DNA of 36,264 nucleotides. Origin: Thermaerobacter marianensis (GTDB taxonomy: Bacteria > Bacillota > Sulfobacillia > DYIH01 > DYIG01). Where the stretch lies: contig DYIG01000001.1 in the NCBI GenBank assembly GCA_020723725.1, positions 1 to 36,264 on the forward strand, in the 5' to 3' direction. The translations under genes were made by a program, and so were the position numbers. The notes under the pieces were generated by a model. The model saw only the letters and a program-made list of their open reading frames with translations, was not told the DNA's origin and searched no databases. Positions 6,893 to 26,895 of this stretch are shown here, one piece after another. The stretch's first letter is position 1, and every line of letters starts with the position of its first letter.

Positions 6893-7858
6893 TCAGTACG
6901 TCCAAACAGAGATGCGGTTGTTTTCCCTATCGGCAATATATATCCGATCACTACCGTCAACCACAACCGCGTTCGGGAAGTTGAAGGTACCTTCTTCAAC
7001 ACCACGTTCACCGAACTCGAACAATGGCTTCCCTTCGTTATTAACCACGAACACCTTGTGTTGGAACGTATCAACAACATAGATGCGCCCTCGGCTGTCA
7101 ACAGCCATACCGCGCGGCAGAACCAGCCCGCCGAAACTCATAATCAACCGGCCTCGGGCGTCAAATTCGTGTATACGCCCGTTATTTGAGTCAGCAACCC
7201 AAACGTTTCCGTTATTATCCGGCGCAACACCGAACGGATAGTTGACTTCACCGGGCCCTTCACCTGGGCGGGCAAACTTCCGCACGAATTTGTCGCTCTT
7301 ATCAAAAACCAGGACCTCATGCCCGAGCGTTGTAACATACATATTGCCCTGGTTGTCTTGACTAAGGGTAAGCGGGCCAACCGTCAAATTACCGTGCTTC
7401 TCTTTATCAGGTATTACGCCAATATACTTGCCGTCCAAACCAAGGATCTGAATCCTGCTATTGAGCATGTCGGCGACATATAGTTTATTGTCACGTACCA
7501 GCACACCCGTTGGATAATAGAACTCCCCTTGGTCGCGCCCGAGCTTACCGAACTTGGCCAACCATTTGCCATTGCGGTCGAACACCTGGATCTGGTTGTT
7601 CTCGCTGTCGGCCACAAACATCCTTCCGTCAGGAGCGATGCTCAACCCAAGCGGCGCCCTAAGAGGTGAGCTGGGCGGGCCATAGATGTCCCTCAACGGA
7701 CGGGGAGGCTGATTAGTTGCCTCACGAACCCTTTGGGAAATTTCCTGGACCGGTTGAGGAACCTGCCTTTTGAAGAACATGATCCCGAAAACCACCAGGA
7801 CGATAAGGGCTAATATTAAGGAAATGATAACTACGGTACTTAGCTTAACTTTTTTCAC
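6893..7858 (-). CDS. membrane-anchored NHL-repeat beta-propeller protein (NHL-A)
   Basis: 321 aa with a GTG start. There is an N-terminal TM helix (VVIISLILALIVLVVFGIMFF). This is followed by repeated NHL-type units (..PLGLSIAPDGRMFVADSENNQIQVFD.., ..YPTGVLVRDNKLYVADMLNSRIQIL.., ..YPFGVAPDNNGNVWVADSNNGRIHEFD.., ..PRGMAVDSRGRIYVVDTFQHKVFVV.., ..FPNAVVVDGSDRIYIADRENNRISVW). It aligns along its full length with the 328- and 327-aa ORFs. Confidence 0.85.
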   Translation of the reverse strand: MKKVKLSTVVIISLILALIVLVVFGIMFFKRQVPQPVQEISQRVREATNQPPRPLRDIYGPPSSPLRAPLGLSIAPDGRMFVADSENNQIQVFDRNGKWLAKFGKLGRDQGEFYYPTGVLVRDNKLYVADMLNSRIQILGLDGKYIGVIPDKEKHGNLTVGPLTLSQDNQGNMYVTTLGHEVLVFDKSDKFVRKFARPGEGPGEVNYPFGVAPDNNGNVWVADSNNGRIHEFDARGRLIMSFGGLVLPRGMAVDSRGRIYVVDTFQHKVFVVNNEGKPLFEFGERGVEEGTFNFPNAVVVDGSDRIYIADRENNRISVWTY

Positions 7859-7888
7859 CGTTTCCCCTGGCTAGGCCAGAGATTCACC

Positions 7889-8635
7889 TCACTTCTTGAC
7901 ATTAGGATTAATTGGTGTAATCTCACCGGGTTTGAATGTGCCTTCCGCTGGCATAGCCGGCAGGTCTTTATCCTTAACCCCCAGCTTGTGCAGGGCATCA
8001 CGGGCATTTGTGAATGCAGGGTCATACCTGAGAGCATCCTTGTAACTGGCTATTGCCTTGTCTTTATCACCCTTGCCCTCGTATGCCGCACCACGAAGGA
8101 ACAGCACTTCAACCAACGTGGGGTCGATCTTTTCCACGATGTAATTAAGCCTCTCCAGGGCTTTATCATAATTCTTGGTATTGACGTAAACCTCCGCCAA
8201 AGCGTAATGAGGCAGCGGGTTTGCCGGCGCAACCTTAACTGCTTTGGAAAGCAATTTTTCAGCCTCAGCAAAGTTCTTCTGCTTCAATTTAACTTGACCG
8301 AGGAAGTAATTTAACTCCTGTTCATCTGGCGCCAACTTGAGAGCCTTAGTATAAGCCTTTTCGGCATTAACGAGATCGCCTTTATTCAGATAGGCGTAAC
8401 CGAGGTTGGCCCAAGCCTCAACGTCGTTAGGGTCCTTTTTAACATTAAACTCCCACCGCTGCGTCTCAACATCCCAGACCTTTGGCCCTACATAGCCACC
8501 ACCCCAAAAGAAGCGATAGCCTACCGCGATGGCTCCGGCAACAACAAGCACCAGAGCTAGGAGAATAATAACTATTGCAACCGGCAGGGATACGCCTCGT
8601 TCTTGCGATGGCTGCTGCGTCGTTTCAGCCGACAT
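7889..8635 (-). CDS. membrane-anchored TPR-repeat protein (TPR-A)
   Basis: 248 aa. It has an N-terminal TM helix followed by the conserved VGYRFFW. Several TPR units follow (AWANLGYAYLNKGDLVNAEKAYTKALKLAP.. etc.). It is paralogous to the 266- and 255-aa ORFs. Confidence 0.85.
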   Translation of the reverse strand: MSAETTQQPSQERGVSLPVAIVIILLALVLVVAGAIAVGYRFFWGGGYVGPKVWDVETQRWEFNVKKDPNDVEAWANLGYAYLNKGDLVNAEKAYTKALKLAPDEQELNYFLGQVKLKQKNFAEAEKLLSKAVKVAPANPLPHYALAEVYVNTKNYDKALERLNYIVEKIDPTLVEVLFLRGAAYEGKGDKDKAIASYKDALRYDPAFTNARDALHKLGVKDKDLPAMPAEGTFKPGEITPINPNVKK

Positions 8636-8683
8636 CTCTATTCATTACCTCCTAACACCTGACGTTCCAAACAAGAAGCTTGT

Positions 8684-9607
8684 TTATTCTTCGCGAATGA
8701 TTTTTGATTTCCTGTTCAGATCAACTCGAAATTCATCAAATTTCTGCCTTTTTTTTGCATCGATAACCTGCTTGGTTAAATCATCCTTAACTTCTTCGAA
8801 AGTAAACTGCTTTTCCGCTTGGTGATCCGTCACCTTCAGGATGTGGAACGCATAGTGACTCTTCACGATGGGGCTTATATCCCCCACCTTCAAGCTAAAC
8901 GCGACATCTTCGACTTCTTGAACCAGGCCCCCCTTTCGGGTAACATAACCGCGGTCGCCACCATCCTTAACTTTGAACTGTTTGGCCACCTCGGCGAAAT
9001 CCTTACCTTCTTGAAGGGCTTCAGCTGCCTTCTTTGCCTCTGCAAGGCTATTGACCTTAATCTCAAGGAGCCTTACTCGTTCAGGCTGTATAAAACGCTC
9101 CTTATTTTCATCGTAGATCTTTTTGACTTCGGCATTATCCGTCTTTACGTCTTTGGTGACATTCTCAAATAGTGCCCTCTGGGTCATCATTTTGACTAAA
9201 ATATCCTTTAAATCGGCTTCAGTAAGACCAGCCTTTGTAAGACCGGCCTTGTACTTGGCCTTATCCCCCTTGAAAACATCCTTCTGGAGGTACGTCAACA
9301 TTTCTTTGTACTGCTTGTCCACTTCTTTCTCGTTTAGCTTAACACCGCGTTTTTTGGCCTCTTGAATAAGCACCTGCTCGTCAATCATGGTGTCAAGGAT
9401 CTGGCCGCGGGCATTTTGATAATCGGTGCCCTTCAGCTGATGGCCATAGATAAGCTCAAAATAGGCGATCCTTTTTTCAAGGTCCTGCATGGTTATTGGC
9501 GTTCCATTGACGCTGGCCGCCCTAGGGCCCTGGTTACATCCACTAACAAAGAGCATTGATGCCAGGATAAGCGCAAGAACTGCATATAGCCCTTGGATTC
9601 GACGCAA
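8684..9607 (-). CDS. parvulin-type peptidyl-prolyl isomerase lipoprotein, PrsA/SurA-like (PPIase-A)
   Basis: 307 aa with a TTG start 8 nt after GGAAGGAGA. It has a lipobox (MLFVSGC) and a SurA-N-like helical region. The parvulin core reads FAEVAKQFK..GGDRGYVTRKGGLVQEVEDVAFSLKVGDISPIVKSHYAFHILKV. Confidence 0.85.
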   Translation of the reverse strand: MRRIQGLYAVLALILASMLFVSGCNQGPRAASVNGTPITMQDLEKRIAYFELIYGHQLKGTDYQNARGQILDTMIDEQVLIQEAKKRGVKLNEKEVDKQYKEMLTYLQKDVFKGDKAKYKAGLTKAGLTEADLKDILVKMMTQRALFENVTKDVKTDNAEVKKIYDENKERFIQPERVRLLEIKVNSLAEAKKAAEALQEGKDFAEVAKQFKVKDGGDRGYVTRKGGLVQEVEDVAFSLKVGDISPIVKSHYAFHILKVTDHQAEKQFTFEEVKDDLTKQVIDAKKRQKFDEFRVDLNRKSKIIREE

Positions 9608-9842
9608 ATTCCTAGTCTCCTTCCACTATGAATACCGCTGCACATATATAAAGAATAGCACTTTTTGCTTATAATGTAGCGCTTTATCTTTTTACGTTAA
9701 CTATTGCCTATTAATGTAACTATGTCAATGTTAGATCTTTTTCCAAATACCCCGCCTGAAAACGTAAGCAAAGTTAAACTATCAAATATCATCGGATTCG
9801 TCGAGATATGTTAAATAGTCATATTGGATAGTTAAACTGAAT

Positions 9843-9875
9843 AAAAAAAGCAGAGGGTCGAATTAGACCCTCTGC
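9843..9875 (-). terminator. rho-independent terminator immediately after Hex-A
   Basis: Minus-strand RNA reads GCAGAGGGUC-UAAUUC-GACCCUCUGC (10-bp stem; 9866-9875 pairs with 9850-9859) followed by seven U (9843-9849). It lies 20 nt after the Hex-A stop. Confidence 0.85.
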
Positions 9876-9895
9876 CTTGCAACCTTACAACTTGC

Positions 9896-12148
9896 TTACT
9901 TCCAACCCTTCCTGGTTACGCTGTGACACCTGTAGCAGGAGGACGCCATCGGGTTGAACCTCGCGAGGGCGGAGCTCACACCGAACTGAGTCCAGTACTT
10001 GGTGTCGTTGACCCAGTACTTCGGCTGGGTTTCGTAACGCGGATCGATGGCAGAGCTGCCCGGGTGAGTGGCTTCGCCATTGCTGCTATTGATGTTGGCA
10101 TTGTCAGCATCCCTGTTCCAGAGGTAGCCGGTGATGTTATCACGCGACACACCGGTGGAATCGTTCACATCGCCATTGGCGTAAGCAACCTCGATGCGCT
10201 CGGAGCCGGAGCCGTGAGGCACGTGGCAGCTCAAGCAGGTCATCATATTCTGCTGGTAGGAACCGGAGGCATCCTGTTCCAGCTGACCTTCGAGCGGGAG
10301 GATCGGATCCTGGACGCGGGTCTGGCCTACGCCCTGGCAGCTGGCGAGCTGCAGAGAATTCGGATCAGGATTACCCGCGGCATCATAACCAAACGGGTTG
10401 TTGAGGGAGTCATCGTCACCCGTACAAATGTCACCGGTTTCAGCGGCAACCGGACCATCGATGAGTTTACCCTCTTCCCAAGCGCCCATGGCTTCGGTGT
10501 TGATCGGGTGCTTGTGCTGGCCAAGGACCTTCTCCATCACAGCGGGCGACCAGTCACCATTCGGATCTTTGTAGTTGGCAAGACCCATGTTGCCGGTGCC
10601 GTAGCCATTGCTGTAGGTGAAGTAGCCGATCGGGCCAGTGCCGGAGTTGGTCTGCTGAGCAGTTTGCCAACCGGACATGTTGGTACCATCCGGATAGACA
10701 TAGTTGTCACGGGCGATGCGGGCTTCATGCCACGCGAAGGCACGGTGACAGGCGGTACAGAAGGTGGTCATACCACCCATCGGCTGTACCTCTTTACAAC
10801 GTCCGCCGGTCGGTGAGGTGCTGTCTACTACCCAAGAACCTTCCATCGCACCTTCACACGCAGCCTGAGCAGCAGCGGATGAAGCGAAAGCAACCGGGTC
10901 TTCGTAGTGCGGATCGTAGAAGATCGTCACAGAGTTACCACCAGAGAGGAACTTGGTGTACATAGCGCGACCTTCCCAGACACCACGATCGGAGCTGGCA
11001 TCGGTCTTGGAGGTATCAACTTCAGATACGCCACGGACCACGATGTTGTGGCGGTCGTTGATCACGCCGCGAAGGATACGGTAGTTCTTGGAACGGTTGT
11101 GAGGCTCGTGGCAGGAGGAGCAAACCAACCAGCTGCCCCAGTTGTAGCTGACATACTTGTAGTCGGTATCCTTCGGCTTGGCCTGGGTCGAATCCTCGAG
11201 GAGCCAGCCGCTACCAGGAGCCATCCAGATACGGGCGGAACCGCTGGCGATCTTGTCTTTCAGGCGCTGCTGGGTTTCATCCAGGTTGTCACCGGGGCTG
11301 GCGGCACGCATCACGTTGTGAGCAGAGGTGAGCTGCACACCGGAACCAGCCTTGAGGCGGTCACCGAACGGACCGGCAGCAGCATAGGCCTTGTCGGCCC
11401 AGCTATTGCCGAGGCGGACATAGCCACGGACCTCGTCGTACTTGGAACCGGTACCATCATGGCAGGTTCCGCAGAGGTCGGTAACGGTTGGACCCTTCAG
11501 GAGCTTCTTGGCCTTGGAGCTGTGGAGCCCGTGACAGGCAGTACAGGCGTTGGTGTACTCGGAGTAGTTACCGTGCCTGTTCTGCGTTGGCGGGAACGCA
11601 GCTGCCACAACATACTTGTTGAGGTTCGGATCCACGTCGGTGCTGGCGCCTACATAGTAGTAGTACTCTTCGTAAGCAGCCACGCTGGCATCATCATAGG
11701 TAACGTAGGCGTACCTATCATTAGCCCACTTATCGGTGCTCCACTCAGAGCCACAGGAGTTGAGGGTGGCTGTCTGAGTGCCACTGGCATCCTCAGAAAC
11801 ACTAACAGAACAGCTTGAGACGGCATTAAAGGAACGGCCATCATTACGCGTATGCTTATAGACAGTGTAGGTAACACTAGAACCGGTATTAGATTCAACG
11901 GGGGTAAACATTATGGTAACTTTAGACCCTGTATCGGTGCTGGAGACGATTGCTCTGGTATCATCAGGCCCGGCCTCACCGGGGACATCGCCGTTTGCAC
12001 CGGCGAACGCCGCGGAGGCAAGGAGCAGAGAACCAAGGGCTACTAGAGCGGATAGCAGGAATTTACGCATTATTAAAGGGGCACCTCCTCTAAGATTTTG
12101 CAAACTAATAAATCGAACTAACTTATGGAATGAACCACCGTTAGACAT
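9896..12148 (-). CDS. secreted hexahaem c-type cytochrome, family member Hex-A
   Basis: 750-aa ORF with six CxxCH (CTACH, CGTCH, CSSCH, CTACH, CLSCH, CYRCH). If translation starts at ATG 12070 (GGAGGTG at 12082-12090) it has a Sec signal peptide, MRKFLLSALVALGSLLLASAAFA. The ORF-track ATG at 12148 has its own GGAGGTG (12159-12167). Conserved family blocks are AAFPPTQNRHGNYSEYTNACTACHGLHSSK..LLKGPT.TDLCGTCHDGTGSKYDEVRG, CSSCHEPHN..KNYRILRG, DPILPLEG, CLSCHVPHGSGSERIEVA, ITGYLWNR and ALARFNPMASSCYRCHS. Confidence 0.9.
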   Translation of the reverse strand: MSNGGSFHKLVRFISLQNLRGGAPLIMRKFLLSALVALGSLLLASAAFAGANGDVPGEAGPDDTRAIVSSTDTGSKVTIMFTPVESNTGSSVTYTVYKHTRNDGRSFNAVSSCSVSVSEDASGTQTATLNSCGSEWSTDKWANDRYAYVTYDDASVAAYEEYYYYVGASTDVDPNLNKYVVAAAFPPTQNRHGNYSEYTNACTACHGLHSSKAKKLLKGPTVTDLCGTCHDGTGSKYDEVRGYVRLGNSWADKAYAAAGPFGDRLKAGSGVQLTSAHNVMRAASPGDNLDETQQRLKDKIASGSARIWMAPGSGWLLEDSTQAKPKDTDYKYVSYNWGSWLVCSSCHEPHNRSKNYRILRGVINDRHNIVVRGVSEVDTSKTDASSDRGVWEGRAMYTKFLSGGNSVTIFYDPHYEDPVAFASSAAAQAACEGAMEGSWVVDSTSPTGGRCKEVQPMGGMTTFCTACHRAFAWHEARIARDNYVYPDGTNMSGWQTAQQTNSGTGPIGYFTYSNGYGTGNMGLANYKDPNGDWSPAVMEKVLGQHKHPINTEAMGAWEEGKLIDGPVAAETGDICTGDDDSLNNPFGYDAAGNPDPNSLQLASCQGVGQTRVQDPILPLEGQLEQDASGSYQQNMMTCLSCHVPHGSGSERIEVAYANGDVNDSTGVSRDNITGYLWNRDADNANINSSNGEATHPGSSAIDPRYETQPKYWVNDTKYWTQFGVSSALARFNPMASSCYRCHSVTRKGWK

Positions 12149-12230
12149 TTCTCATTTTCACCTCCTCTCTGGCCTGAAGCGGCGTACCAGGCGCAAAAGA
12201 AACACAAACAAATAAATAAGAGTCGCTCTC

Positions 12231-12281
12231 TAATTAAGCAAAACGGCGAAATATATATCGAAATTTCTAGTTGCTTAATTT
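12231..12281. other. long imperfect hairpin in the Hex-A leader / divergent intergenic region
   Basis: AATTAAGCAA (12232-12241) pairs with TTGCTTAATT (12271-12280). An inner GAAAT/ATTTC stem is formed by 12248-12252 and 12263-12267. It lies between the predicted Hex-A promoter and the Hex-A start codons. Confidence 0.35.
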
Positions 12282-12322
12282 AGGCACAAAAATTGGACAG
12301 AAATACCTAGTCCTCAAATCTC

Positions 12323-12350
12323 ATTTTAACCTGAAGTGCATGGTTGTCAA
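12323..12350 (-). promoter_or_regulatory. sigma-A-type promoter candidate for Hex-A
   Basis: The minus strand reads TTGACA (12350-12345) - 16 nt - TAAAAT (12328-12323). This implies a leader of roughly 170-245 nt. Confidence 0.5.
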
Positions 12351-12377
12351 GGTATTCTGTGGATAACGACCTTTTAA

Positions 12378-12491: not shown

Positions 12492-14501
12492 ATGTTTTAT
12501 TCTCTATTGCTTAAGAGCAAGAGTCCAAAGAAACTTCTGACCCGCCAAGCATCCATCCTATTTTGGTTTGGCGTCTTTTGTCTTTATATCATTTTCATTT
12601 CTTCTGACAACTCATTGGCATTGAGCGCCAGCCCCGGATTCGCAGGGGAACTCGGACCTGTGGACACAAAGGCGATTGTCAACCGGACCAGTGGAGGGAG
12701 CCTGGCGGTGAAGGTATTGTTCACCCCTGATAAAGGCGCCGGTAACTATTCTGTCTATAGATATGCCCTCTACGGGGCCGACAACCCCTCGAGCCCCGCG
12801 AATATATGGAAGCGATCCTTTGACCAGCAGTCGGCTTGCACTGTTACCGGTGTTGGGTCTGACACAGATCTAGGGGTAGTTACTTACGTGTATCTGGATA
12901 ACGGATGCACCTCATCCGGCTGGTCTGTGGATGACCAGTATAAATATGTGGTCTTTACGGATCCCAATGTTGAGGCATATAACGAGTACTATTACTATGT
13001 GGCATATGAAACTGACCCAACTGCAGAACCCATCCCTCAGCCCGTATTCAACAACGGGAACTGGGTCCCATCGGGCCTGCATGACCTGAATAGGTATGTG
13101 GTGGCAGCAGCCTTTCCACCGACCCAGACACGCCATGGCAACTATTCGGAATATACCAATGCCTGCAATGCATGCCACGGTCTGCACAGCTCAAAGCACG
13201 TAAAACTGCTAAAGGGGCCAACGAGTACTGACCTTTGCGGGACCTGTCACGATGGTACAGGATCAAAATACGATGAAGTGCGTGGCAGGGTCCGGAAAAG
13301 CAATAGCTGGGCTGATTCAGAGTATGCTGCCGCAGGACCCTTTGGTAACCGGCTAAAACACAACAGCGGTATCAGCACAACTTCGGCTCACAACGTCACC
13401 CGGGTCAAGTGGGAGTTTGTGCAGAATAACAATGAGATGGGCGACATGCTGGATGACTCCGGGGCCTTTGATTTCTCAGCGCGGATCTGGCAGGCGCCAG
13501 GTTATTACTATGGCGGGGATTCCGACTCCCCGAAAAAATGGCTCTCCTGCATCTCTTGCCATGAACCCCATAATAAATATAAGAATTACAGGCTCTTAAA
13601 AGGCGAGATCAACGGTCGCAAGAACATCATTGTGCGAGGAGTCAGTGCTACCAACGTTTATTCCGGCGACGGCAACCCCTATGAGAGAGGGGAATGGGAA
13701 AAACGATACATGTACACCAAGTTCCTTTCAGGTGGAAACAGCACCGACAGCACCGTAAGCGGCATGGGTGGCGTTGTTTCCTTCTGCACCGCGTGTCACT
13801 CTGCCTTTGCCGTGGGAGCCAGTTCACAGTCTGATCCCAGCTTGGGGATATATGTCGCCCCCACAAGCGACAACTTCAATTGCAGCGGCGGGGATTGCAC
13901 GAAGAGTCAGGACCAGGTTGCCTCAGACGCCGAACGGATCCCACCCGGGACCCACAAGCACCCTGTCGGGGTGGAGGCAGCCTATGCCCCTGCGGTAGAT
14001 GGGCCGCTCAACGAATTTGGTGAAGTCTGCACCATGAATAAACAGACTGCGTTAAGCGATGACTGCAAGCAAGGTAGGGTAATCGACCCGATACTGCCGC
14101 TGGAAGGCCAGAAGGAATCAAAATCTGGCCCTACGGCGTATCGTCGCAACCTCGTGATGTGCTTGAGCTGCCATGTGCCACATGGTTCCGGTTCAGAACG
14201 ACTTGAAGTAGCATGGAAAAACAATAACCTCAATGACACTCAAAATGGACTTCGTGATGCTATCACCGGCTACCTGTGGAACCGGAACGTTCCCGACCAG
14301 AGCGCCATGGGGAGCCAGGAATACAAGCACCCTGATTCGCCAGGGCAGGCCGACCCGCAGTTTGGCACAGGGTCACAGGAACCCAGGTTCTGGGTTGCGA
14401 ACTCACCCTACTGGACGCAATACGGCTTCAGTTCCGCATTGTCACGGTTCAATCCAATGGCCTCCGCATGTTACCGCTGCCACAGCAGGACTAAAAAGTA
14501 A
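12492..14501 (+). CDS. secreted hexahaem c-type cytochrome, family member Hex-B (only plus-strand member)
   Basis: 669 aa with six CxxCH (CNACH, CGTCH, CISCH, CTACH, CLSCH, CYRCH). It has an N-terminal hydrophobic signal/anchor (ILFWFGVFCLYIIFISS..LALSA). The family blocks match Hex-A/C (AAFPPTQTRHGNYSEYTNACNACHGLHSSKHVKLLKGPTSTDLCGTCHDGTGSKYDEVRG; ..ALSRFNPMASACYRCHSRTKK-stop). Confidence 0.9.
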   Translation: MFYSLLLKSKSPKKLLTRQASILFWFGVFCLYIIFISSDNSLALSASPGFAGELGPVDTKAIVNRTSGGSLAVKVLFTPDKGAGNYSVYRYALYGADNPSSPANIWKRSFDQQSACTVTGVGSDTDLGVVTYVYLDNGCTSSGWSVDDQYKYVVFTDPNVEAYNEYYYYVAYETDPTAEPIPQPVFNNGNWVPSGLHDLNRYVVAAAFPPTQTRHGNYSEYTNACNACHGLHSSKHVKLLKGPTSTDLCGTCHDGTGSKYDEVRGRVRKSNSWADSEYAAAGPFGNRLKHNSGISTTSAHNVTRVKWEFVQNNNEMGDMLDDSGAFDFSARIWQAPGYYYGGDSDSPKKWLSCISCHEPHNKYKNYRLLKGEINGRKNIIVRGVSATNVYSGDGNPYERGEWEKRYMYTKFLSGGNSTDSTVSGMGGVVSFCTACHSAFAVGASSQSDPSLGIYVAPTSDNFNCSGGDCTKSQDQVASDAERIPPGTHKHPVGVEAAYAPAVDGPLNEFGEVCTMNKQTALSDDCKQGRVIDPILPLEGQKESKSGPTAYRRNLVMCLSCHVPHGSGSERLEVAWKNNNLNDTQNGLRDAITGYLWNRNVPDQSAMGSQEYKHPDSPGQADPQFGTGSQEPRFWVANSPYWTQYGFSSALSRFNPMASACYRCHSRTKK

Positions 14502-16801: not shown

Positions 16802-16822
16802 AGTATATAACTCCCTTTTTAT

Positions 16823-18687: not shown

Positions 18688-18764
18688 ATTTCGCCTAAGG
18701 CTTGCTTCATCCTTCCGCCCCCATATTTTTCTACTCTTTAACCAGTATCAACAATCAGGGAGAC

Positions 18765-18792
18765 AAAAAAGCGCCCGCGATCTGGCGGGCGC
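18765..18792 (-). terminator. rho-independent terminator immediately after Hex-C
   Basis: Minus-strand RNA reads GCGCCCGC-CAGAUC-GCGGGCGC (18785-18792 pairs with 18771-18778) followed by six U (18765-18770). It lies about 25 nt after the Hex-C stop. Confidence 0.85.
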
Positions 18793-18817
18793 CTTAAGAA
18801 ACATTTTGATGCAACCG

Positions 18818-20956
18818 TTAGTTAGTTGTACGGCTGTGACACCTATAGCAAGCAGAGGCAAACGGGTTGAACCTCGCGAGCGCAGAACTGAAGCCGAACT
18901 GCGTCCAATAGGGCGAAGTATCGACGAACAGATCGGGGCGCTGAGACCCTGTGCCAAACTGCGGGCTAACTTGACCGGGCGAGCTCGGGTGCTGGTATTC
19001 GCTGCTACCCATGAAGCTTTGGTTATTGACATCACGGTTCCAGAGGTAACCGGTGATGTTATCACGTGAACCGCCTGTTGTGTCATTCAGCCCGTTGTTC
19101 TTCCATGCCACCTCGATCCGCTCAGAGCCGGAACCATGCGGTACATGGCAGCTCAGGCAAACGACCTTGTTCTTCCAATACCCCTGCTTGTCGGAACCAC
19201 TACCGTCTACACCTTCAAGCGGGAGAATCGGGTCCATAACGCGACCCTGCTTACAACCGGATTTTACGGAGTTAGTAGAACTGTTCCAAACACCATATAC
19301 ATAGCCAGTTATGCTGCCAGTGCTATCGGCAGGATTCGGCGTACAAATGTCACCGCCACTGCTAATCTGACCCTCGATTACAGGAGCCAAGTAGGCCTCG
19401 ACATCGACCGGGTGCTTGTGAGCACCGGACGGGACCCTGTCTGAACCTGGATCAGTGCCAGGGTATGGGTCGGTACAATTAGCACCACTTCCACAATCGA
19501 AGTTAGTGCTCTTTGGTGCGGCAAAGATGATGCTGGGATCGGTAATGCTCATAGTGGAATTGGCGCGCGGCTCGACGGCAAACCCAACGTGGCACGCGGT
19601 ACAGAAGGAGACGATACCGCCCATGGCTCCACCACGACCAGCCGGGTTATTGGTGAAATTGTTATTGGTATCGCTACCACCGCTCAGGTACTTGGTGTAC
19701 ATGTAGCGCATCTGCCAATCGCCACGCTCATTGATATTGGCGTCATTACTATAAACATTGGTGGCACTGACACCGCGGACTACAATGTTCTTCCTGTCAT
19801 TGAACTCGCCGCGCAGGAGACGGTAGTTCTTATTCTTGTTATGCGGTTCGTGACAGTTGATGCAACCTAGCCACCTCTTGGAATCATCACCGTTACGGGA
19901 ATAGAATCCAGGCGCCTGCCAGATGCGAGCGGAATTTGCAACAACAGAACTCGTGTTAAGGCTATCGCCTTGCGGGTTATCGTTCGTCACCAAGTCAGAA
20001 CGCACCCTCATAACGTTGTGAACAGAGGTGGTCTGGACACCGGAACCTTGCTTTAAGCGGTCACCGAAGGGACCAGCGGAAGCAAAGGCCCTATTGCTCC
20101 AGGTCGGTCCAGTCCGGACATAGCCACGAACCTCATCGTATTTAGACCCGGTACCGTCGTGACAGGTACCACAGAGGTCGGTGCTAGTCGGAGCCTTGAG
20201 GAGCTTCACATGCTTGGAACTGTGGAGACCATGACAGGCATTACAAGCATTGGTGTACTCTGAGTAGTTCCCGTGCCTTGTTTGAATCGGCGGGAAGGCA
20301 GGTGCTACGACATACTTATTAAGATCAATCCCACTTGAATTACTGGGGAAACCACCGCTGTAACCACTATCAGAGTCATCCACGAAATAATAGTACTCTT
20401 TATAAGCCTCTACGTTTCTATCAGAAAATTTCACATAATTATAGGTATTATCCGTTCCCCAAGAGTACTTGGTATTATCCACCGAGTTGCAAGTACCCAG
20501 GGACATGCTTGTAACAACGCCAAGCTGGGTATCCACGCTGGCAGTCACTTGGCATTCCCCGACTTTGTCGAACGTCCTTTTCCATAGGATGCTGTCAAAA
20601 GGAGTCGACGCTCCGGCCAGGTTATACCTATACACAGCGTAGGTCTTGGTGCCGTTTTTGGGAGTAAACATAACGACTACCTCGGAGTCGTAAACACCAT
20701 TGGTTACAGTCCCTAAGGTATTTACCACTGCCTTGGTGTCATATGGCCCGCTTTGCCCTGCATAACCGACAGCTAATGCAGCGGGAGCGATAATAAGTAG
20801 GGCTAGGAGAATAAAGCTAAATATAATAGCTGTCTTCTTAGATTTCACGAACAGGACACCTCCTCGAATATCTGTGAGGCCATTAGTCCCTTTTCGCGTG
20901 TTCATCCGTTTTCCACCCCCTTTCCCGCTGTTTTTAGGGAGTAAATGGGACAGCAT
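18818..20956 (-). CDS. secreted hexahaem c-type cytochrome, family member Hex-C
   Basis: 712-aa ORF with six CxxCH (CNACH, CGTCH, CINCH, CTACH, CLSCH, CYRCH). The likely start is GTG 20848 (GAGGAGGTG at 20857-20865), giving the signal peptide (M)KSKKTAIIFSFILLALLIIAPAALA. Alternative starts are ATG 20905 and ATG 20956. The family blocks are as in Hex-A/B. Confidence 0.9.
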   Translation of the reverse strand: MLSHLLPKNSGKGGGKRMNTRKGTNGLTDIRGGVLFVKSKKTAIIFSFILLALLIIAPAALAVGYAGQSGPYDTKAVVNTLGTVTNGVYDSEVVVMFTPKNGTKTYAVYRYNLAGASTPFDSILWKRTFDKVGECQVTASVDTQLGVVTSMSLGTCNSVDNTKYSWGTDNTYNYVKFSDRNVEAYKEYYYFVDDSDSGYSGGFPSNSSGIDLNKYVVAPAFPPIQTRHGNYSEYTNACNACHGLHSSKHVKLLKAPTSTDLCGTCHDGTGSKYDEVRGYVRTGPTWSNRAFASAGPFGDRLKQGSGVQTTSVHNVMRVRSDLVTNDNPQGDSLNTSSVVANSARIWQAPGFYSRNGDDSKRWLGCINCHEPHNKNKNYRLLRGEFNDRKNIVVRGVSATNVYSNDANINERGDWQMRYMYTKYLSGGSDTNNNFTNNPAGRGGAMGGIVSFCTACHVGFAVEPRANSTMSITDPSIIFAAPKSTNFDCGSGANCTDPYPGTDPGSDRVPSGAHKHPVDVEAYLAPVIEGQISSGGDICTPNPADSTGSITGYVYGVWNSSTNSVKSGCKQGRVMDPILPLEGVDGSGSDKQGYWKNKVVCLSCHVPHGSGSERIEVAWKNNGLNDTTGGSRDNITGYLWNRDVNNQSFMGSSEYQHPSSPGQVSPQFGTGSQRPDLFVDTSPYWTQFGFSSALARFNPFASACYRCHSRTTN

Positions 20957-21054: not shown

Positions 21055-21083
21055 ATTCTAGCATTGCAAACTATTTATGGCAA
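21055..21083 (-). promoter_or_regulatory. sigma-A-type promoter candidate for Hex-C
   Basis: The minus strand reads TTGCCA (21083-21078) - 17 nt - TAGAAT (21060-21055) with a TGc extended -10. It lies in the 157-nt gap after the 9(+1)-haem gene. Confidence 0.55.
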
Positions 21084-21113: not shown

Positions 21114-22811
21114 CTAGTACGCAGGCCTCCAATAAACCCAATCCTGAACGGTGTGGCAACCTGTTTGACAACCCGATTCCGGCCAGTTTATGGCCTGAAT
21201 CGCAGGGCCCGTTGGGTCAGTCCACAGCAACCTCGGCCACTGCGAGGATCCGTGGGTTGTATGGCAGTTGCGGCAGCTATTGCCCATTACACCCACATGG
21301 TACCTGTGAAGGGGCTGTTGGTAGACCTCCCCTGTAACGTCGCCCCAGAATCGGCTTAGCGCCATGGGGGCAGGACCCGGTATCTCCAACGAAGAATAGA
21401 CGGACAAGTAAACCGAGGAGTTGTGGCAGTTAAAGCAAATCTCGTCACCGGTCATTGGCCCAGTAACCGGATAGGGGGCCGAAAGGATCCAACTGTTTTG
21501 AGACCCATGGGGCGAGGCGCCCGTGACACCGCTCTTGTGGCAGTCGGAGCACATCGTCCGGCTTGTATATGACCAGTTATTACCGTTGCGGTCTGTCCCT
21601 GTAAAAGCGTTTGGCCGTATGAAGTTATTCTGACCCGCCGCCTCCACAGGGTGGTAGCTAGGATTGGCCGGATTGAATTCCAGGGCTTTGTCACTGGCGC
21701 CGGGCTTGTTCCAGTACCCAGAATGGCACTTGTAACAGATCCTGTACTCAAAACCATCCGCCGGGAAGTTTAATGCCCCTGACGCCGACCATGTGTACCA
21801 AGGGGTTTGTGTCCGGTCAACCGTTACATGAGATACGTTACGAGTAGGGTCCGCTTTGGTTGCTGAATGGGGGTCATGACAATCCACACATTCCGAGTGG
21901 CGCCGGTCGTTGGCAGGCAGATCTGCAAGGGTCTCTGTGTCCAGATGGCGTCCAGCAACTGTCTTTACCGGGTGCGACGAGGCAAGGTTCAAGTCAGAGT
22001 CCACGTTTTGATGGCAGGACAAGCAGCCGTTCTCTTCCTGGGACTTGGTTAGACGATAGAAGGTATCCTTGCCGTGAGTATCGTGACAGGAGTTGCAGGC
22101 CATTCCCTGCCCTTGCCCCACCTGTGAAAGAGCATGAGACGAAGTTTCCCAATCAGGCCTTGATATAACTAACTTAGAGCCTGAACCATCATGACAGGTG
22201 AAACAAACACCTGCTAAGTCTTGCACTTTAACTAGACCAACTTCAACAGAGCTATGCAGGCCATGGCAAACGGTACAGACCTTCGTGTTTTCAGTATAAC
22301 CACCGTGGGGATTCTGCCTGGGAGGAAACGCACTGGCAACCGAGTACCCCTCAGGGTTATTGTTAAATCCCTCGGGGCCTGTTACTAAATAAGATACTTC
22401 CTTATCGTTCACGGGGTTTGTCTTATCCTCGAGAACTAAGTAGTTTGAACCTACAGTTTCTTGATGCCATACAAAATTAGCATTGATGGTAGAAAGCGAA
22501 CTAACAGCCCACTCTCCACCAGACCACGTAATCTCCCCTGTCCCCACCCAGTTGTAGGCTAAAGGATCAGAGGTGTCACGTTTGTAAACCTGATAAACAA
22601 CCTGGGGCTCTATTGGTAGGATATAGACCTTTAATACATTATTTAGGCCAACCTGTATCCTCGGCTGGACCGCATCAACCTCATAGGTTGTAAGGGCAAA
22701 CAAAGCAAAACCAACCACTAAGGCAAGGATAAATGCCCATCCATACAACCTAAAACCCCTGATGTATTCGCTAAGTTTTCGAACAGAGGGCTCGTTCTCG
22801 AATCGCCTCAC
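21114..22811 (-). CDS. multihaem c-type cytochrome, 9 CxxCH plus one C-terminal CxxxCH
   Basis: 565 aa with a GTG start and an N-terminal TM/signal helix (WAFILALVVGFALFALTTY). After a beta-rich N-domain it has the family dihaem module (SAFPPRQNPHGGYTENTKVCTVCHGLHSS..CFTCHDGSGSK). Then come CNSCH, CLSCH, CVDCH, CYKCH, CSDCH, CFNCH and CRNCH, and finally CQTGCH 12 residues from the C-terminus. The C-terminal half is collinear with the end of the 865-aa protein. Confidence 0.9.
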   Translation of the reverse strand: MRRFENEPSVRKLSEYIRGFRLYGWAFILALVVGFALFALTTYEVDAVQPRIQVGLNNVLKVYILPIEPQVVYQVYKRDTSDPLAYNWVGTGEITWSGGEWAVSSLSTINANFVWHQETVGSNYLVLEDKTNPVNDKEVSYLVTGPEGFNNNPEGYSVASAFPPRQNPHGGYTENTKVCTVCHGLHSSVEVGLVKVQDLAGVCFTCHDGSGSKLVISRPDWETSSHALSQVGQGQGMACNSCHDTHGKDTFYRLTKSQEENGCLSCHQNVDSDLNLASSHPVKTVAGRHLDTETLADLPANDRRHSECVDCHDPHSATKADPTRNVSHVTVDRTQTPWYTWSASGALNFPADGFEYRICYKCHSGYWNKPGASDKALEFNPANPSYHPVEAAGQNNFIRPNAFTGTDRNGNNWSYTSRTMCSDCHKSGVTGASPHGSQNSWILSAPYPVTGPMTGDEICFNCHNSSVYLSVYSSLEIPGPAPMALSRFWGDVTGEVYQQPLHRYHVGVMGNSCRNCHTTHGSSQWPRLLWTDPTGPAIQAINWPESGCQTGCHTVQDWVYWRPAY

Positions 22812-23006: not shown

Positions 23007-23990
23007 CTACCTACCCCAAACGGATATCCGCGCATTTTCCCTATCAATGATATAGAGATTGCCAGATGGCCCCATTGCGATCCCGTTGGGGAAGTTGAAT
23101 TGTCCACTTTCCAAACCGCGCTCTCCAAATTGGAACAGTAGCGAGAACTGGTTACCGTCAATCCCCACAACTGTGTGTCTTAGAACATCCACTACGTAAA
23201 CCCGATCCTTGCTGTCTATAACTATACCGCGCGGTAACACCATATCATCCGCAATAGCCTTTATAGCTTTTCCGGTATTAGGGTCTAACACCTGAACCAT
23301 AGCGTTATTACTGTCTGATACCCAAAGTCTCCCCTGGGAATCAAATGCCAGCCCGTAAGGGTAGTTGAATTGGCCAGCCTGTCGGCCTGCGCGTCCTATC
23401 GTTTTAACGTAGTTGTCATTTTTGTCGAATACTAAGACCTTATGGTCCAAAACAGCAACATAAAGGTTCCCATCTTTATCCTGTGCAAGTGAAAGCGGAC
23501 CGACCTCTAAGTCTTTATGCTTATTCGGATCCGGTATTTGGCCGATGTATTTCCCGTCCATGCCTAAAATTTGAACCCTATTGTTACGCATATCGGCAAC
23601 ATAGAGTCTATTGTTACGAATTAGAATATCTATGGGATAGTTAAATTGAACTTTGTCGCCACCCGTCTTACCAAACCGAGCTACCCAACGACCATCAGAA
23701 TCAAACACCTGAATCTGATTATTGCCAGTATCTGCCACGTAGATCTTCCCGTCAGACCCAACCTCGATACCTAGCGGGGCTTTAAGGGGAGAACTGGGTG
23801 GCCCGTATATATCCATCTTATGGACCGGGGGCTGATTAGAGGTTTCCCTGAAGATCTTTACTACATTGGTTACCGGCTCTGGCGGCCTGTTTTGGACATA
23901 GAAAATTACAAAACCTAGGGCGGTCAATAACGCCACAGCTAGACTTATGTTAATGGCCGTTCCCAGTTTAAATCCCTTAGACTGACGCAT
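23007..23990 (-). CDS. membrane-anchored NHL-repeat beta-propeller protein (NHL-C)
   Basis: 327 aa. The ATG lies 9 nt after GGGGGAAAC. It has a TM helix (INISLAVALLTALGFVIFYV). NHL units include IYGPPSSPLKAPLGIEVGSDGKIYVADTGNNQIQVFD. Confidence 0.85.
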   Translation of the reverse strand: MRQSKGFKLGTAINISLAVALLTALGFVIFYVQNRPPEPVTNVVKIFRETSNQPPVHKMDIYGPPSSPLKAPLGIEVGSDGKIYVADTGNNQIQVFDSDGRWVARFGKTGGDKVQFNYPIDILIRNNRLYVADMRNNRVQILGMDGKYIGQIPDPNKHKDLEVGPLSLAQDKDGNLYVAVLDHKVLVFDKNDNYVKTIGRAGRQAGQFNYPYGLAFDSQGRLWVSDSNNAMVQVLDPNTGKAIKAIADDMVLPRGIVIDSKDRVYVVDVLRHTVVGIDGNQFSLLFQFGERGLESGQFNFPNGIAMGPSGNLYIIDRENARISVWGR

Positions 23991-24007: not shown

Positions 24008-24775
24008 CTACTTCTTTATATTTTCCTGAAATGCAGGGCTCGTTGAATGAACCTGCCGTTCCCCAAGTGCGCCTGACGGCATTTGAGGGAGATCAGATTC
24101 CTTTAAACCATTGTTCAATAATGCTTTTCTTGCTGCCTCATAAGATGGATCCAGTTCCACAGCCTTTTTATAGCTGGCTATTGCCTTGCTTTTCTGGCCT
24201 TTCTTCTCGTAAATCGAGCCCAAGAGGTAGTGAACATCTGAATAAGTAGGATCAATATTCTTGATAATATGGTCCAGTGTCTTAATAGCTAAATCATTTT
24301 TCCCTGATTCAGCATAGGTTATAGCCAATTGATAGTTAGCCAATATATGATTTGGAAAGTCTTTTGCCAACTGCGTTAAAATCTTCTCTGCCTGCGAATA
24401 ATCCTTTTTCTTTAGATAAAGGATTCCAAGGAAATATCTAGCCATTGGGTCATTCTTTTCGATTTGGAGTGCTTTTTTTAAATACTTTTCAGCCTCAATA
24501 AAATTACCTTCAGCCAAATAATTGGACCCTAACCCCACAAGGCTATCTTTATCATTTGGGTTGTGTTTTAGATTATATTGATATTGAGCCTTTTCAATCT
24601 CAATACGACTAGGTGAACGGTTTTCTTCCCAGAAGAACTTATAGCCGACTACAATTCCCAGAATGGCTACGACAAGAAAGCTACCAATAATCATTGCCCA
24701 TGCAACGGCCGGGGATATAGTCCTTTCCTGATGGTTAGGGCTTTTTAGTTGAGTTTGTTTATCCACTATCAACAT
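24008..24775 (-). CDS. membrane-anchored TPR-repeat protein (TPR-C)
   Basis: 255 aa. A TM helix (AWAMIIGSFLVVAILGIVVGYKFFW) is followed by TPR units. The exact start is ambiguous (ATG 24775 is only 2 nt after AAGGAGG; GTG is three codons later). Confidence 0.8.
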   Translation of the reverse strand: MLIVDKQTQLKSPNHQERTISPAVAWAMIIGSFLVVAILGIVVGYKFFWEENRSPSRIEIEKAQYQYNLKHNPNDKDSLVGLGSNYLAEGNFIEAEKYLKKALQIEKNDPMARYFLGILYLKKKDYSQAEKILTQLAKDFPNHILANYQLAITYAESGKNDLAIKTLDHIIKNIDPTYSDVHYLLGSIYEKKGQKSKAIASYKKAVELDPSYEAARKALLNNGLKESDLPQMPSGALGERQVHSTSPAFQENIKK

Positions 24776-24929
24776 ATCCTCCTTGGTAGCGTAGCCATCC
24801 TATAAACAGACTCTAACATATAGATTCTAAATATATTTGGAGAACCCTTTCGCTAAGGGTTGTAAGTTGTTTCCTGCCAATATTAGATCACCTTAAAAGA
24901 TATTCGTAAAAGAAGAACCTTTTGTCAAT

Positions 24930-24958
24930 AAAAAGGAGCCACCCGTATGGGTAGCTCC
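24930..24958 (-). terminator. rho-independent terminator immediately after Hex-D
   Basis: Minus-strand RNA reads GGAGCUACCC-AUAC-GGGUGGCUCC (10-bp stem with one U-G; 24949-24958 pairs with 24935-24944) followed by five U (24930-24934). It lies about 32 nt after the Hex-D stop. Confidence 0.85.
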
Positions 24959-24990
24959 TTTTAGTTAATGCTTTAACTCTCGAATATATG

Positions 24991-26739
24991 CTATTTCGTG
25001 CTGTGACAACGATAACAGGCGGACGCGAACGGTTGGAACCTACCGAGTGCAGTGCTACCGCGGAGTGCATCGCCAGCAGCATCAAAGCGGTCATAAACGT
25101 TATCACTATTATTATCGCCGTTGATTAGATAAGCGTCATTAAGACGGCGAGTATAGCTAGGATCAGTCGCATCGTAGGTCCCATTCAGATTCCCATTGGC
25201 ATAAGCAACCTCGACCTTATGGGTAGACCTAGTACCATGCGGAACATGGCAGGTTATGCAAACCACCTTATTCCCGTTATATGTGGTCTGGGTCCCTTCC
25301 AAGGGTACATATTTCTGAGCTGCAGCATCGCGACCCGCAGCTTCAACATCCATGACTCTGGCCTGATTGGTGCTAGAGCCAAGCGGATCGATATTGAAGC
25401 GCCCTCCACCTTGAGTAACCACGCGATCAGCAGTCATTTCCATCATATGCCGCTTATGGCCCCAAGTCCCGTCATTCGGCGGAACCTGAGTTTGCGTCGT
25501 ACCATCATCGGTAGTTGTAAACTCCCTATGACAAGCAGTACAAAAAGCGGTTACACCCTTAGACCCACTCGCCGTGGCAGAAAGATACTTACTAAGCATC
25601 TTGGAATTAGGAGTGTTGAGATCTATCTCCGCAACGCCCCTTACTTTTACCCCTGTCCTATCTGCTACACTCATACCATAGTCGCCACTGGTAAGAATGT
25701 CTCCACGCAGTAGCCGATAGTTCTTGAACTTATTGTGCGGTTCATGACATGTTGCACAGGTAAGGGCATCATTAGCAGTGCTACCCCCGTTCTTTGGATC
25801 AGTAAGGTTCGTAGAACCCGGCGCTGACCAAACATAAGCTGCATTGGACCCTACAGAACCACTTGCCGCACCCGCACCAAGGGTTAAGCCAATTCGATAC
25901 ACATTATGAACGGAGGTGGCGTCACCACCAATCGTAGTGTTTGGATTACCAAATTGGGATCCAAAAGGACCAGCAGCAGCGGTAGTATAGGAACCCCAAG
26001 TTGCACCTGTGCGTACTATACCGTTAATCTCATCGTACTTAGAACCCGACCCATCGTGACAGGTGACACAAAGGTCGGTCTGAGTAGCAGCCTTCAAGAG
26101 CTTACCAAGACCAGAAAGGGTACTCACGGAACTATGCAGGCCGTGACAGGCTGTACAAGCGTTAGTGTACTCACTGTAGGAACCATGCCGGGTTTGGGCC
26201 GGAGGGAAGGCACCTACAACCGTATAAAGATCAACCTGGGTTTCTTCGGCTGCCGGAGTAGCCGTTTGAGCATATTCGGCAACAAGATAGTAATATTCCT
26301 CGTAATCTGTAATCGGAGTAGCGTCGTTTGCGGCATCCGTGTAAATTACATACCCATATTGATCAGTGGACCACCCCGCCGGAGTACCTTGAATAACTGG
26401 TGTTCCTCCAGTAGTTTGAACGACCGCCGAACTCTCAAGCACAAATTTACGGAGGTCATCCTTGTCATGTCGATAAACAGCATACTTTTGCGTGGCGTTA
26501 TTAGTGGGAGTAAATATAATTTGAATATTACTCCCGTAGGTTGTACCAACAACGTTGGTCCTTGTGTCCGTTGGATGCGCAGCGAAAGCCGCTCCAGCGA
26601 AAAGCAACGTACCAAGCATTGCGGTAATAAGGGCAGAAACCTTCTTATTAAAACTATTAGCTGCTTTTTTCGTTAATATATTTAGACCAACCACTTTTTC
26701 ACCTCCTGAAATTAGTCGGCTTATGTCCCCTAATTTCAT
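24991..26739 (-). CDS. secreted hexahaem c-type cytochrome, family member Hex-D
   Basis: 582-aa ORF with six CxxCH (CTACH, CVTCH, CATCH, CTACH, CITCH, CYRCH). The likely start is GTG 26694 (AGGAGGTG at 26700-26708). The upstream in-frame ATG 26739 also has a GGAGGTG (26744-26750). The signal peptide is ..KKVSALITAMLGTLLFAGAAFA. It has no Cys outside the haem motifs. Confidence 0.9.
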   Translation of the reverse strand: MKLGDISRLISGGEKVVGLNILTKKAANSFNKKVSALITAMLGTLLFAGAAFAAHPTDTRTNVVGTTYGSNIQIIFTPTNNATQKYAVYRHDKDDLRKFVLESSAVVQTTGGTPVIQGTPAGWSTDQYGYVIYTDAANDATPITDYEEYYYLVAEYAQTATPAAEETQVDLYTVVGAFPPAQTRHGSYSEYTNACTACHGLHSSVSTLSGLGKLLKAATQTDLCVTCHDGSGSKYDEINGIVRTGATWGSYTTAAAGPFGSQFGNPNTTIGGDATSVHNVYRIGLTLGAGAASGSVGSNAAYVWSAPGSTNLTDPKNGGSTANDALTCATCHEPHNKFKNYRLLRGDILTSGDYGMSVADRTGVKVRGVAEIDLNTPNSKMLSKYLSATASGSKGVTAFCTACHREFTTTDDGTTQTQVPPNDGTWGHKRHMMEMTADRVVTQGGGRFNIDPLGSSTNQARVMDVEAAGRDAAAQKYVPLEGTQTTYNGNKVVCITCHVPHGTRSTHKVEVAYANGNLNGTYDATDPSYTRRLNDAYLINGDNNSDNVYDRFDAAGDALRGSTALGRFQPFASACYRCHSTK

Positions 26740-26866
26740 AGGGCACCTCCTTTCTCGGACGGGGAGTTATAGCCTTACCATCTATATGCCACCCGGTTTT
26801 AATCGGGCGAGCAGGCAACGGAACCAAAATAAGCAATATTTCTGAAAAACAAGACCACTGATGGTA

Positions 26867-26895
26867 ATTGTAAGATGGAAACCCGGTTTTGACAA
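26867..26895 (-). promoter_or_regulatory. sigma-A-type promoter candidate for Hex-D
   Basis: The minus strand reads TTGTCA (26895-26890) - 17 nt - TACAAT (26872-26867). The spacer contains the palindrome AAACC-G-GGTTT. Confidence 0.55.

Follow-up and report, generated by a model that had tools for sequence, protein, structure and literature searches.

Repeated TPR–NHL gene pairs beside OmcS-like hexahaem cytochromes in a Bacillota electron-transfer island: candidate assembly or anchoring factors

Introduction

Why would a bacterium keep the same small set of accessory genes three times over, each time beside a different hexahaem cytochrome gene? The question is raised by the complete 36,264-bp contig DYIG01000001.1 (hereafter the window), on whose minus strand infB, ylxR, nusA and rimP are followed by a dense island of multihaem-cytochrome genes. 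The window is an extracellular-electron-transfer (EET) island of an uncultured, Clostridia-like bacterium of the Bacillota. Five of its genes encode hexahaem paralogues (Hex-A to Hex-E), and three of these stand in cassettes with genes for a tetratricopeptide repeat (TPR) protein and an NHL-type beta-propeller, both predicted to be membrane-anchored.

How electrons pass the thick wall of a Gram-positive cell is still largely a model built on Thermincola, while the assembly of cytochrome nanowires is known in outline only, and for Geobacter only. From the sequences analyzed here we give about even chances to the proposal that the TPR–NHL pairs, joined in some cassettes by a parvulin and a lipoprotein, serve as extracytoplasmic folding, assembly or anchoring factors for cytochromes of the OmcS/CwcA type.

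Results

All three cassettes lie on the minus strand. In cassette A, the gene for Hex-A (9896..12148) is followed by a terminator-like hairpin and then by genes for a parvulin peptidyl-prolyl isomerase (PPIase; PPI-A, 8684..9607), TPR-A (7889..8635), NHL-A (6893..7858) and a proline-rich lipoprotein with a lipobox but no Pfam family (6226..6858). Cassette B runs from Hex-C (18818..20956) through a terminator to TPR-B (17887..18687), NHL-B (16904..17890), PPI-B (15782..16801) and a GGDEF gene, with the stop codon of TPR-B overlapping the start of NHL-B by 4 nt. Cassette C comprises Hex-D (24991..26739), a terminator, TPR-C (24008..24775) and NHL-C (23007..23990), after which comes a gene for a 9(+1)-haem cytochrome. 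Hex-A, Hex-C and Hex-D each carry six CxxCH motifs in an OmcS-like hexahaem domain, preceded in Hex-A by a signal peptide and an immunoglobulin (Ig)-like N-terminal domain. The other two Hex paralogues lie beyond the cassettes: Hex-B (12492..14501, plus strand), which has diverged from Hex-A and is 55% identical to Hex-C, and Hex-E (26995..28455, minus strand), the most compact of the five.

A three-fold cassette had been proposed in a first-pass annotation of this DNA, and its reading frames, haem counts, domains, N-terminal anchors and three terminators were all recovered here. Profile searches agreed with its domain calls as well: Pfam identified three NHL proteins (E 1e-32 to 1e-37), three TPR proteins and two proteins with Rotamase and SurA_N domains, along with doubled-CXXCH domains in the cytochromes. 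The accessory proteins are, as had been claimed, true paralogues that align end to end, with protein identities of 44-55% for NHL, 38-48% for TPR and 33% for the two PPIases; the Hex proteins share 29-55%. The motif IYGPPSSPL...VAD..NNQIQVFD is found in the NHL copies and VGY(R/K)F(F/Y)W in the TPR copies. Identity at four-fold degenerate third codon positions is only 0.18-0.45 between copies, and the longest exact nucleotide match is at most 21 nt. Since synonymous sites are saturated while protein identity has been kept and no long nucleotide match remains, the duplications are old and under purifying selection, as the annotation had also held. A recent repeat or an assembly artefact was rejected on the same grounds. 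The reading frames are all intact and their motifs conserved, so a pseudogene reading was dropped too.

Anchors were predicted with a hydropathy and lipobox heuristic. By this measure the NHL and TPR proteins all have a single hydrophobic helix at the N-terminus, followed by the propeller in the former and by a predicted extracytoplasmic TPR domain in the latter, and both PPIases and the lipoprotein have a lipobox (VSGC in PPI-A). All accessory proteins are thus predicted to be anchored on the outside of the membrane, in agreement with the earlier annotation. The likely true start of TPR-B is an internal Met near 18606, 27 codons past the listed start, which agrees better with the aligned paralogues. 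The N-termini of the Hex proteins resemble signal peptides, and the heuristic scan found no sortase motif in these proteins.

The two PPIases have the architecture of PrsA-type foldases, with a lipobox, a SurA-like N-terminal domain and a parvulin domain (Rotamase_2 and SurA_N_3 in PPI-A). They score at most 72 bits on the NCBIfam PrsA equivalog models, against cut-offs of about 350, and are therefore PrsA-like in architecture but not PrsA equivalogs. The PPIase is also a facultative member of the set. It is present in two of the three window cassettes, being absent from cassette C, and in two of the nine related loci with a TPR–NHL pair.

Related loci are designated by L numbers. Scanning metagenomes with the Hex profile yielded 16 loci, 14 of them long enough to judge, and in nine of these 14 a TPR–NHL pair is adjacent to Hex-type genes. 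In several loci the linkage is tighter than adjacency. In L001, the Hex, TPR and NHL genes overlap by 4 nt at each junction, with a PPIase gene nearby; in L003, TPR–NHL comes after a Hex gene that has an NHL domain fused to it, and stop and start codons overlap. Tandem TPR–NHL–hexahaem units number at least six in L097, three in L098 and two in L100, the copies being only 28-37% identical. In L097 (Ga0255338_1002186, 1140-19866) the units stand on one metagenomic contig, and the last two are without a TPR gene.

Gene fusions point the same way. In three distinct proteins an NHL domain stands at the N-terminus, fused to an Ig-like domain and an OmcS-like hexahaem module (P0020 in L089, 8888-11827; L088, 6011-9142; P0294 in L086, 1605-5354). 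The propeller occupies residues about 43-310, or 212-417 in the largest fusion protein, and a separate TPR–NHL pair comes after each fusion gene.

L092 keeps cassette A gene for gene, with the order Hex, PPIase, TPR, NHL, lipoprotein unchanged. The L092 TPR protein has TPR-A as its best match (53% identity), the L092 NHL protein has NHL-A (64%), and an orthologue of PPI-A is in the corresponding position. The lipoprotein, an orphan according to the first-pass annotation, proved not to be one, since L092 has two homologues of it, at 5048-5818 and 8983-9672 (35-40% identity, E 1e-32 to 6e-42), and one of the two immediately follows the NHL gene. This makes it the fifth conserved member of cassette A.

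A scan of genome contigs with the NHL alignment was dominated by the generic NHL motif; 80 loci were listed, the window's own lineage not among them. In four of the 80, those of the TPR-plus-NHL type, a small TPR gene immediately precedes the gene for a single-propeller NHL protein, and all four have multihaem genes directly downstream. They belong to one Bacillota, one Actinomycetota and two Coriobacteriia metagenome-assembled genomes (MAGs). The earlier annotation had noted that its case would fail if homologous TPR/NHL/PPIase trios were common without adjacent cytochromes. In our small sample, TPR–NHL pairs with this architecture stand beside multihaem genes in every locus recovered.

Propeller genes also adjoin omcS-type genes in diderms. 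In three diderm loci (L084, L101 and L102; Geobacter, an Anaeromyxobacteraceae MAG and an ENA contig), a gene for an NHL-type propeller of 315-332 aa lies directly upstream of omcS-type genes (L084 8809-9756; L101 6697-7695; L102 6969-7928, with a second copy at 5980-6972). These proteins have no precomputed Pfam match. The three directly adjacent propellers are mutually 37-49% identical, and the second L102 copy is 28% identical to that of L084. Their alignment by hhalign to the window NHL family has a probability of 97.7-98.1%. As NHL repeats resemble one another generally, the match reflects a common fold class and position, not orthology.

A TM-anchored (transmembrane-anchored) TPR gene is found in one further setting, directly after a 12-haem cytochrome gene. 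In the window this gene encodes TPR-D (32364..33011, minus strand), a distant fourth member with 22-25% identity to TPR-A, TPR-B and TPR-C; the distant examples are L091 1708-3000, L097 1140-1832, and L098 2701-3357 and 14564-15262. The TPR partnership may not be limited to hexahaem cytochromes.

The haem domain of the Hex proteins is, judged by sequence profiles, a distant homologue of OmcS. A search of the PDB with the single Hex-A sequence (phmmer) gave no match. A profile of the 48-member Hex family, however, matches OmcS (6EF8) with E 6e-9 over residues 9-406 of 407, and since only the family profile reached OmcS, the relationship is a distant one. Profile-profile alignment with hhalign to a 28-member OmcS-family alignment gave 99.2% probability and E 2.8e-19 over haems 1-3. 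Identity to the OmcS family over the haem domain is only about 21-26%. In a joint alignment of 75 Hex and OmcS sequences, haem motif 1 is nearly invariant and motifs 2-6 are fully so, and the histidines equivalent to OmcS H16, H110, H147, H257 and H335 are invariant.

Of the 12 His ligands of OmcS, one reaches haem 5 from the adjacent subunit (PMC6584659). Every haem site of the Hex proteins is a canonical CxxCH, and the Hex family has exactly six invariant histidines outside these motifs, H185, H202, H278, H335, H431 and H501 in Hex-D numbering, which align with OmcS H2, H16, H110, H147, H257 and H335, the H2 correspondence coming from the hhalign profile-profile alignment. The donated haem-5 ligand of OmcS is reportedly His16 (Wang et al. 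2019). The six extra Hex histidines match the number of distal ligands for six bis-His haems and, going by the alignments, probably have that role.

The N-terminus differs. OmcS starts at its haem domain once the signal peptide is removed (F1-H2), whereas in the Hex proteins an Ig-like domain of ~120-170 aa stands ahead of an RHG motif that aligns with OmcS F1-H2-S3. Residues 60-177 of the AlphaFold model of Hex-D form a confident beta-sandwich. The family is also rare. Among 5.8 billion proteins 47 Hex homologues were found, none outside this contig above 43% identity to Hex-D, and 1.84 billion cluster representatives gave about 27 full-length Hex matches and 58 at E 1e-30 or better; more than 5,000 proteins, by contrast, match OmcS. 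The Hex proteins thus widen the OmcS family by a rare, deeply diverged branch.

Hex-A, Hex-C and Hex-D are each flanked by a promoter-like site upstream and a strong terminator-like hairpin downstream, all on the minus strand. The upstream sites are at 12323..12350 for Hex-A (TTGACA-16-TAAAAT, 11/12 matches, a consensus match only), 21055..21083 for Hex-C (10/12 matches, extended -10 TG) and 26867..26895 for Hex-D (TTGTCA-17-TACAAT, 10/12 matches). The hairpins, each with a U run, directly follow Hex-A (9840..9878; dG -23.3 kcal/mol, z-score -5.3), Hex-C (18760..18795; 11 pairs, 8 of them GC, dG -20.9 kcal/mol) and Hex-D (24925..24962; dG -23.8 kcal/mol, z-score -6.25). From these signals each of the three genes looks monocistronic (promoter, gene, terminator), with its neighbouring pair beyond the terminator. 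Hex-A and Hex-B, on opposite strands, diverge from a common 343-bp spacer (12149-12491), which holds the region's best promoter-like site.

Upstream of the cassettes on the minus strand is a core set of genes for dihaem, 12-haem, TPR-D, 11-haem, 15-haem and Hex-E proteins, which is largely kept in other contigs. The dihaem cytochrome (34427..35503) is of class-I type and membrane-anchored, with an orthologue in L091. The 12-haem membrane-anchored cytochrome (33061..34413) is an ImdcA homologue (BLASTP, 27% identity over 307 aa, E 2e-20) and is also weakly homologous to Thermincola PdcA. The 11-haem cytochrome (31262..32413) is MtrA-like, matching PDB 6R2Q chain A with E 1e-12; that MtrA chain bears the label 'Cystathionine beta-synthase' in the entry. 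The 15(+1)-haem cytochrome (28525..31122) has an N-terminal Big_1 domain and orthologues in L085 and L091. Hex-E is the last gene of the set, with orthologues of 51% identity in the same two loci, and TPR-D is kept in L091.

The 9(+1)-haem cytochrome (21114..22811, minus strand), encoded between NHL-C and Hex-C, shares the N-terminal region of the Hex proteins at about 27-30% identity. In its C-terminal half it resembles the C-terminal part of the 15(+1)-haem Big_1 protein (37% identity over 369 aa), and each of these two proteins has one CX3-4CH site. No homology by sequence was found between the 9-haem protein and OcwA. The GGDEF gene (14532..15701, minus strand), at the 3' end of cassette B and inside the cytochrome island, is convergent with Hex-B. 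It encodes a membrane-bound diguanylate cyclase (PF00990, E 9e-50; four hydrophobic segments), and its position hints at a coupling of the island to cyclic di-GMP or biofilm formation.

The named relatives of the window's NusA that are 63-69% identical are all from Bacillota/Clostridia (Thermaerobacter, Desulfofundulus, Thermincola, Peptococcaceae and Heliobacterium), with the exception of one labelled as an Actinobacteria MAG. Inferred solely from these relatives, the host envelope is likely monoderm.

Discussion

If the TPR–NHL pairs are helpers of the Hex cytochromes, they could act in the following way. After export by Sec and haem attachment, the PrsA-like parvulin lipoprotein would fold the cytochrome, which would then be captured by the membrane-anchored TPR–NHL pair, the propeller binding the cytochrome and the TPR protein acting as an adaptor or chaperone. 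The cytochrome that the pair may hold, orient or template would be part of an OmcS/CwcA-like polymer or else a tethered unit across the cell wall. With Hex genes between a promoter-like site and a strong terminator and helper genes outside, much subunit and little helper would be made, as in pilus operons. Each paralogous set would serve a different cytochrome isoform.

Several observations weigh against this proposal. Hex-B and Hex-E have no TPR–NHL pair or other accessory set of their own, and in five of the 14 informative Hex loci no pair is within reach. About seven single-domain NHL proteins of similar size, from other phyla and among the matches listed, have no cytochrome neighbours. No accessory protein passes a curated NCBIfam cut-off, and the TPR domain is generic and near the TPR consensus, its best PDB matches being consensus TPR proteins and OGT. 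The structural models add no support: AlphaFold2 gave the haem domains a confidence (pLDDT) below about 60, both for Hex-D with the 48-sequence alignment and for the Hex-E haem domain with the 75-sequence Hex and OmcS alignment, and Foldseek with these low-confidence models matched only the Ig-like domain or nothing, with no OmcS match. The Ig-like domain adjoins the region of the OmcS subunit interface and could be incompatible with stacking of the OmcS type. Binding and chaperoning of the cytochromes, their polymerization and the isoform specificity of the helper sets are all inferred from sequence.

Gene order is a further difficulty. A terminator separates each Hex gene from 'its' pair, and distant loci have the opposite arrangement: the order is TPR–NHL–Hex in L097, L098, L004 and L005 and Hex–(PPI)–TPR–NHL in L001, L003, L088 and L092. 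The assignment of one pair to one Hex gene is therefore ambiguous. Cassettes B and C can be read in two ways, only one of which has a Hex gene followed by its crew, and it would fit just as well to group TPR-C and NHL-C with the genes downstream of them, for the 9-haem protein and Hex-C. A mirror-tree comparison in the six-unit L097 array, of NHL with the upstream or downstream Hex, gave no signal (r = 0.04 and 0.17; permutation counts 62/120 and 44/120). For this lineage, the conservation of cassette A in L092 and the translational coupling in L001 favor the parse in which the crew follows its Hex gene. The claim of the first-pass annotation that each hexahaem cytochrome has a dedicated crew thus survives in part: synteny, fusions and the L092 cassette speak for it, but two Hex genes are without a set and cassettes B and C can be parsed two ways.

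Among alternatives, the TPR and NHL proteins might be stoichiometric parts of the conduit that tether the hexahaem cytochrome, or the base of a stack of them, to the cytoplasmic membrane near its membrane and 'periplasmic' donors, the ImdcA-like 12-haem and MtrA-like 11-haem proteins. Both proteins are predicted to be permanently anchored, with large ectodomains, and the covalent NHL–cytochrome fusions suit a permanent partner better than a transient chaperone. Moreover, the ratio of pair to cytochrome is about 1:1 in L097, L098 and L100, and in the core set, L097 and L098 the 12-haem gene too has a TPR gene after it. The terminators after the Hex genes, however, predict far lower expression of the pair, contrary to a 1:1 stoichiometry; the Hex genes without a pair are also hard to fit, and the TPR and NHL proteins have no redox cofactor motif. 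We consider a purely structural role of this kind rather unlikely.

There is less to be said for the absence of any specific partnership, with NHL and TPR proteins as general surface, adhesion or sensing proteins of an EET/biofilm island, co-amplified with the cytochromes by tandem duplication and co-regulation. Both are generic interaction folds, other phyla have NHL proteins of similar size that are not accompanied by cytochromes, the island includes a GGDEF gene, mirror-tree analysis found no co-divergence, and an NHL protein of G. metallireducens has been read as an adhesin. Chance company of this sort nevertheless seems distinctly unlikely, as in at least three phyla the pair has remained next to hexahaem genes despite saturated synonymous sites, is translationally coupled to them in L001 and L003, and has its NHL member fused to the cytochrome in places, while cassette A is kept gene for gene in L092.

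Finally, CcmI of System I consists of a TM helix and an outward-facing TPR domain, an architecture that the window TPR proteins match. There is only a slim chance that the TPR protein is primarily a CcmI/NrfG-like chaperone presenting the long, loop-rich hexahaem apoprotein to the haem-attachment machinery, with the NHL link secondary, because although TPR-A (49.0 bits) and TPR-C (46.2 bits) exceed the 42-bit cut-off of PF23914 (TPR_CcmH_CycH) and an NrfG-like TPR gene lies beside the Uet cytochrome cluster, TPR-B reaches only 35.6 bits, generic TPR models score far higher for all three, 26.6 bits on the NCBIfam NrfG model fall short of its cut-off of 306, the best PDB matches lie elsewhere, canonical CxxCH throughout the Hex proteins leaves no obvious need for a special lyase helper, and the NHL fusions go unexplained.

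The helper proposal can be carried further, to a form that is speculative and, taken whole, improbable. Monoderms of the Bacillota and Actinomycetota would build wall-spanning or extracellular OmcS-type wires with a minimal machine that lacks outer-membrane parts, the TPR–NHL pair being an isoform-specific primer or usher. The partnership of NHL propellers with OmcS-type cytochromes would then be ancient and common with Geobacter, and arrays of three to six or more units would encode a repertoire of distinct wires.

In its narrower form, the proposal identifies a TM-anchored TPR protein and a TM-anchored NHL propeller, with an optional parvulin and lipoprotein, as a small conserved candidate machinery for the assembly or anchoring of OmcS-type cytochromes. 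It is credible and testable because the set is repeated per cytochrome and sometimes fused to the cytochrome, and because an NHL propeller is also encoded beside diderm omcS-type genes. The candidate genes could aid the heterologous production of cytochrome wires.

Comparison with known systems

The nearest parallel is the osc (omcS companion) operon of Geobacter, in which, according to PMC13194489 citing Shen et al. 2025 (Cell Chem Biol 32:239), the PPIase OscH serves folding, the propeller OscD serves filament morphology and OscEFG serve secretion. A PPIase is needed for OmcZ nanowires as well (bioRxiv 10.64898/2026.07.18.739370). The two systems share a parvulin PPIase encoded with an OmcS-type gene (PPI-A and PPI-B here, OscH in Geobacter and a Rotamase gene in L102), although the PPIase is absent from most loci related to the window. 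They also share a beta-propeller protein, an NHL-type propeller gene adjoining omcS-type genes in the diderm loci, and several OmcS paralogues per locus (omcS, omcT and oscC there; five Hex genes here). OscD was tried as the counterpart of the NHL proteins and rejected: proteins in the OscD position are of the PF21783 YNCE/lactonase type, and hhalign against the window NHL family gave only 13% probability, which weighs against the helper proposal. The analogy to the omcS companion cluster, drawn in the first-pass annotation, therefore holds in that the Hex proteins are distant OmcS homologues and osc has a PPIase and a propeller, but not in any kinship of OscD with the NHL proteins. The window Hex proteins further differ by their extra N-terminal Ig-like domain, and the window helpers by their anchoring in the cytoplasmic membrane, by a small TM-TPR partner that is always present, and by repetition of the pair per cytochrome, where osc has a single set. 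No open reading frame of the window has the domains of OscB (spermine-synthase-like), OscE (a large protein), OscF (a GNA1162-like lipoprotein) or OscG, nor were any found in L001, L092 or L097, and the window has no outer-membrane secretion component.

Among Gram-positive bacteria, the closest system is that of Thermincola CwcA (TherJR_1122/Tfer_0075; Carlson 2012; Faustino 2021, PMC7911101). This hexahaem cytochrome is weakly homologous to OmcS (18% identity), and its proposed polymer spans the peptidoglycan, each haem 5 taking a ligand from the next subunit (PMC7911101). The likeness lies in the Bacillota host, the hexahaem OmcS-like cytochrome and the window 12-haem protein homologous to ImdcA. 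No named Thermincola protein is among the 47 Hex homologues, however, and PMC7911101 discusses no TPR, NHL or PPIase partners for CwcA. In Dethiobacter alkaliphilus, NHL and TPR genes were noted in several EET multihaem clusters, and a role in secretion, orientation or complex assembly was suggested (Zavarzina 2023, PMC10376724). This too is a Gram-positive-type anaerobe with NHL and TPR genes amid cytochrome clusters, likened here by description, but the remark is a genomic one only, and no OmcS link, pairing rule, reiteration, fusions or PPIase was reported. The earlier statement that no such module is characterized in a Gram-positive-type organism thus stands as to characterization, while the Dethiobacter genes (PMC10376724) and the CwcA proposal (PMC7911101) show that parts of the idea had been noted before.

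Among diderms, a PPIase (UetB) and two NHL propellers (UetH and UetI) stand beside multihaem cytochromes in the Uet cluster of Tenderiales and Gallionella, and the OmcE nanowire clusters of Desulfuromonadia always have two beta-propeller lipoproteins. Both differ from the window in their diderm setting, their beta-barrel porin or secretin-like protein and their unrelated undecahaem or tetrahaem cytochromes, and both are without the TM-TPR partner and the reiteration that the window has. In the pap and fim pilus operons, a terminator or attenuator after the major-subunit gene, with the assembly genes downstream, gives a high ratio of subunit to helper. The likeness to these chaperone-usher operons of type 1 and P pili is a functional analogy without homology, the window having a probably monoderm setting and haem proteins. 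Set against these systems, what we have found is an osc-like helper set reduced to a repeated, membrane-anchored TPR–NHL core beside a deeply diverged branch of OmcS, in lineages of the Gram-positive type.

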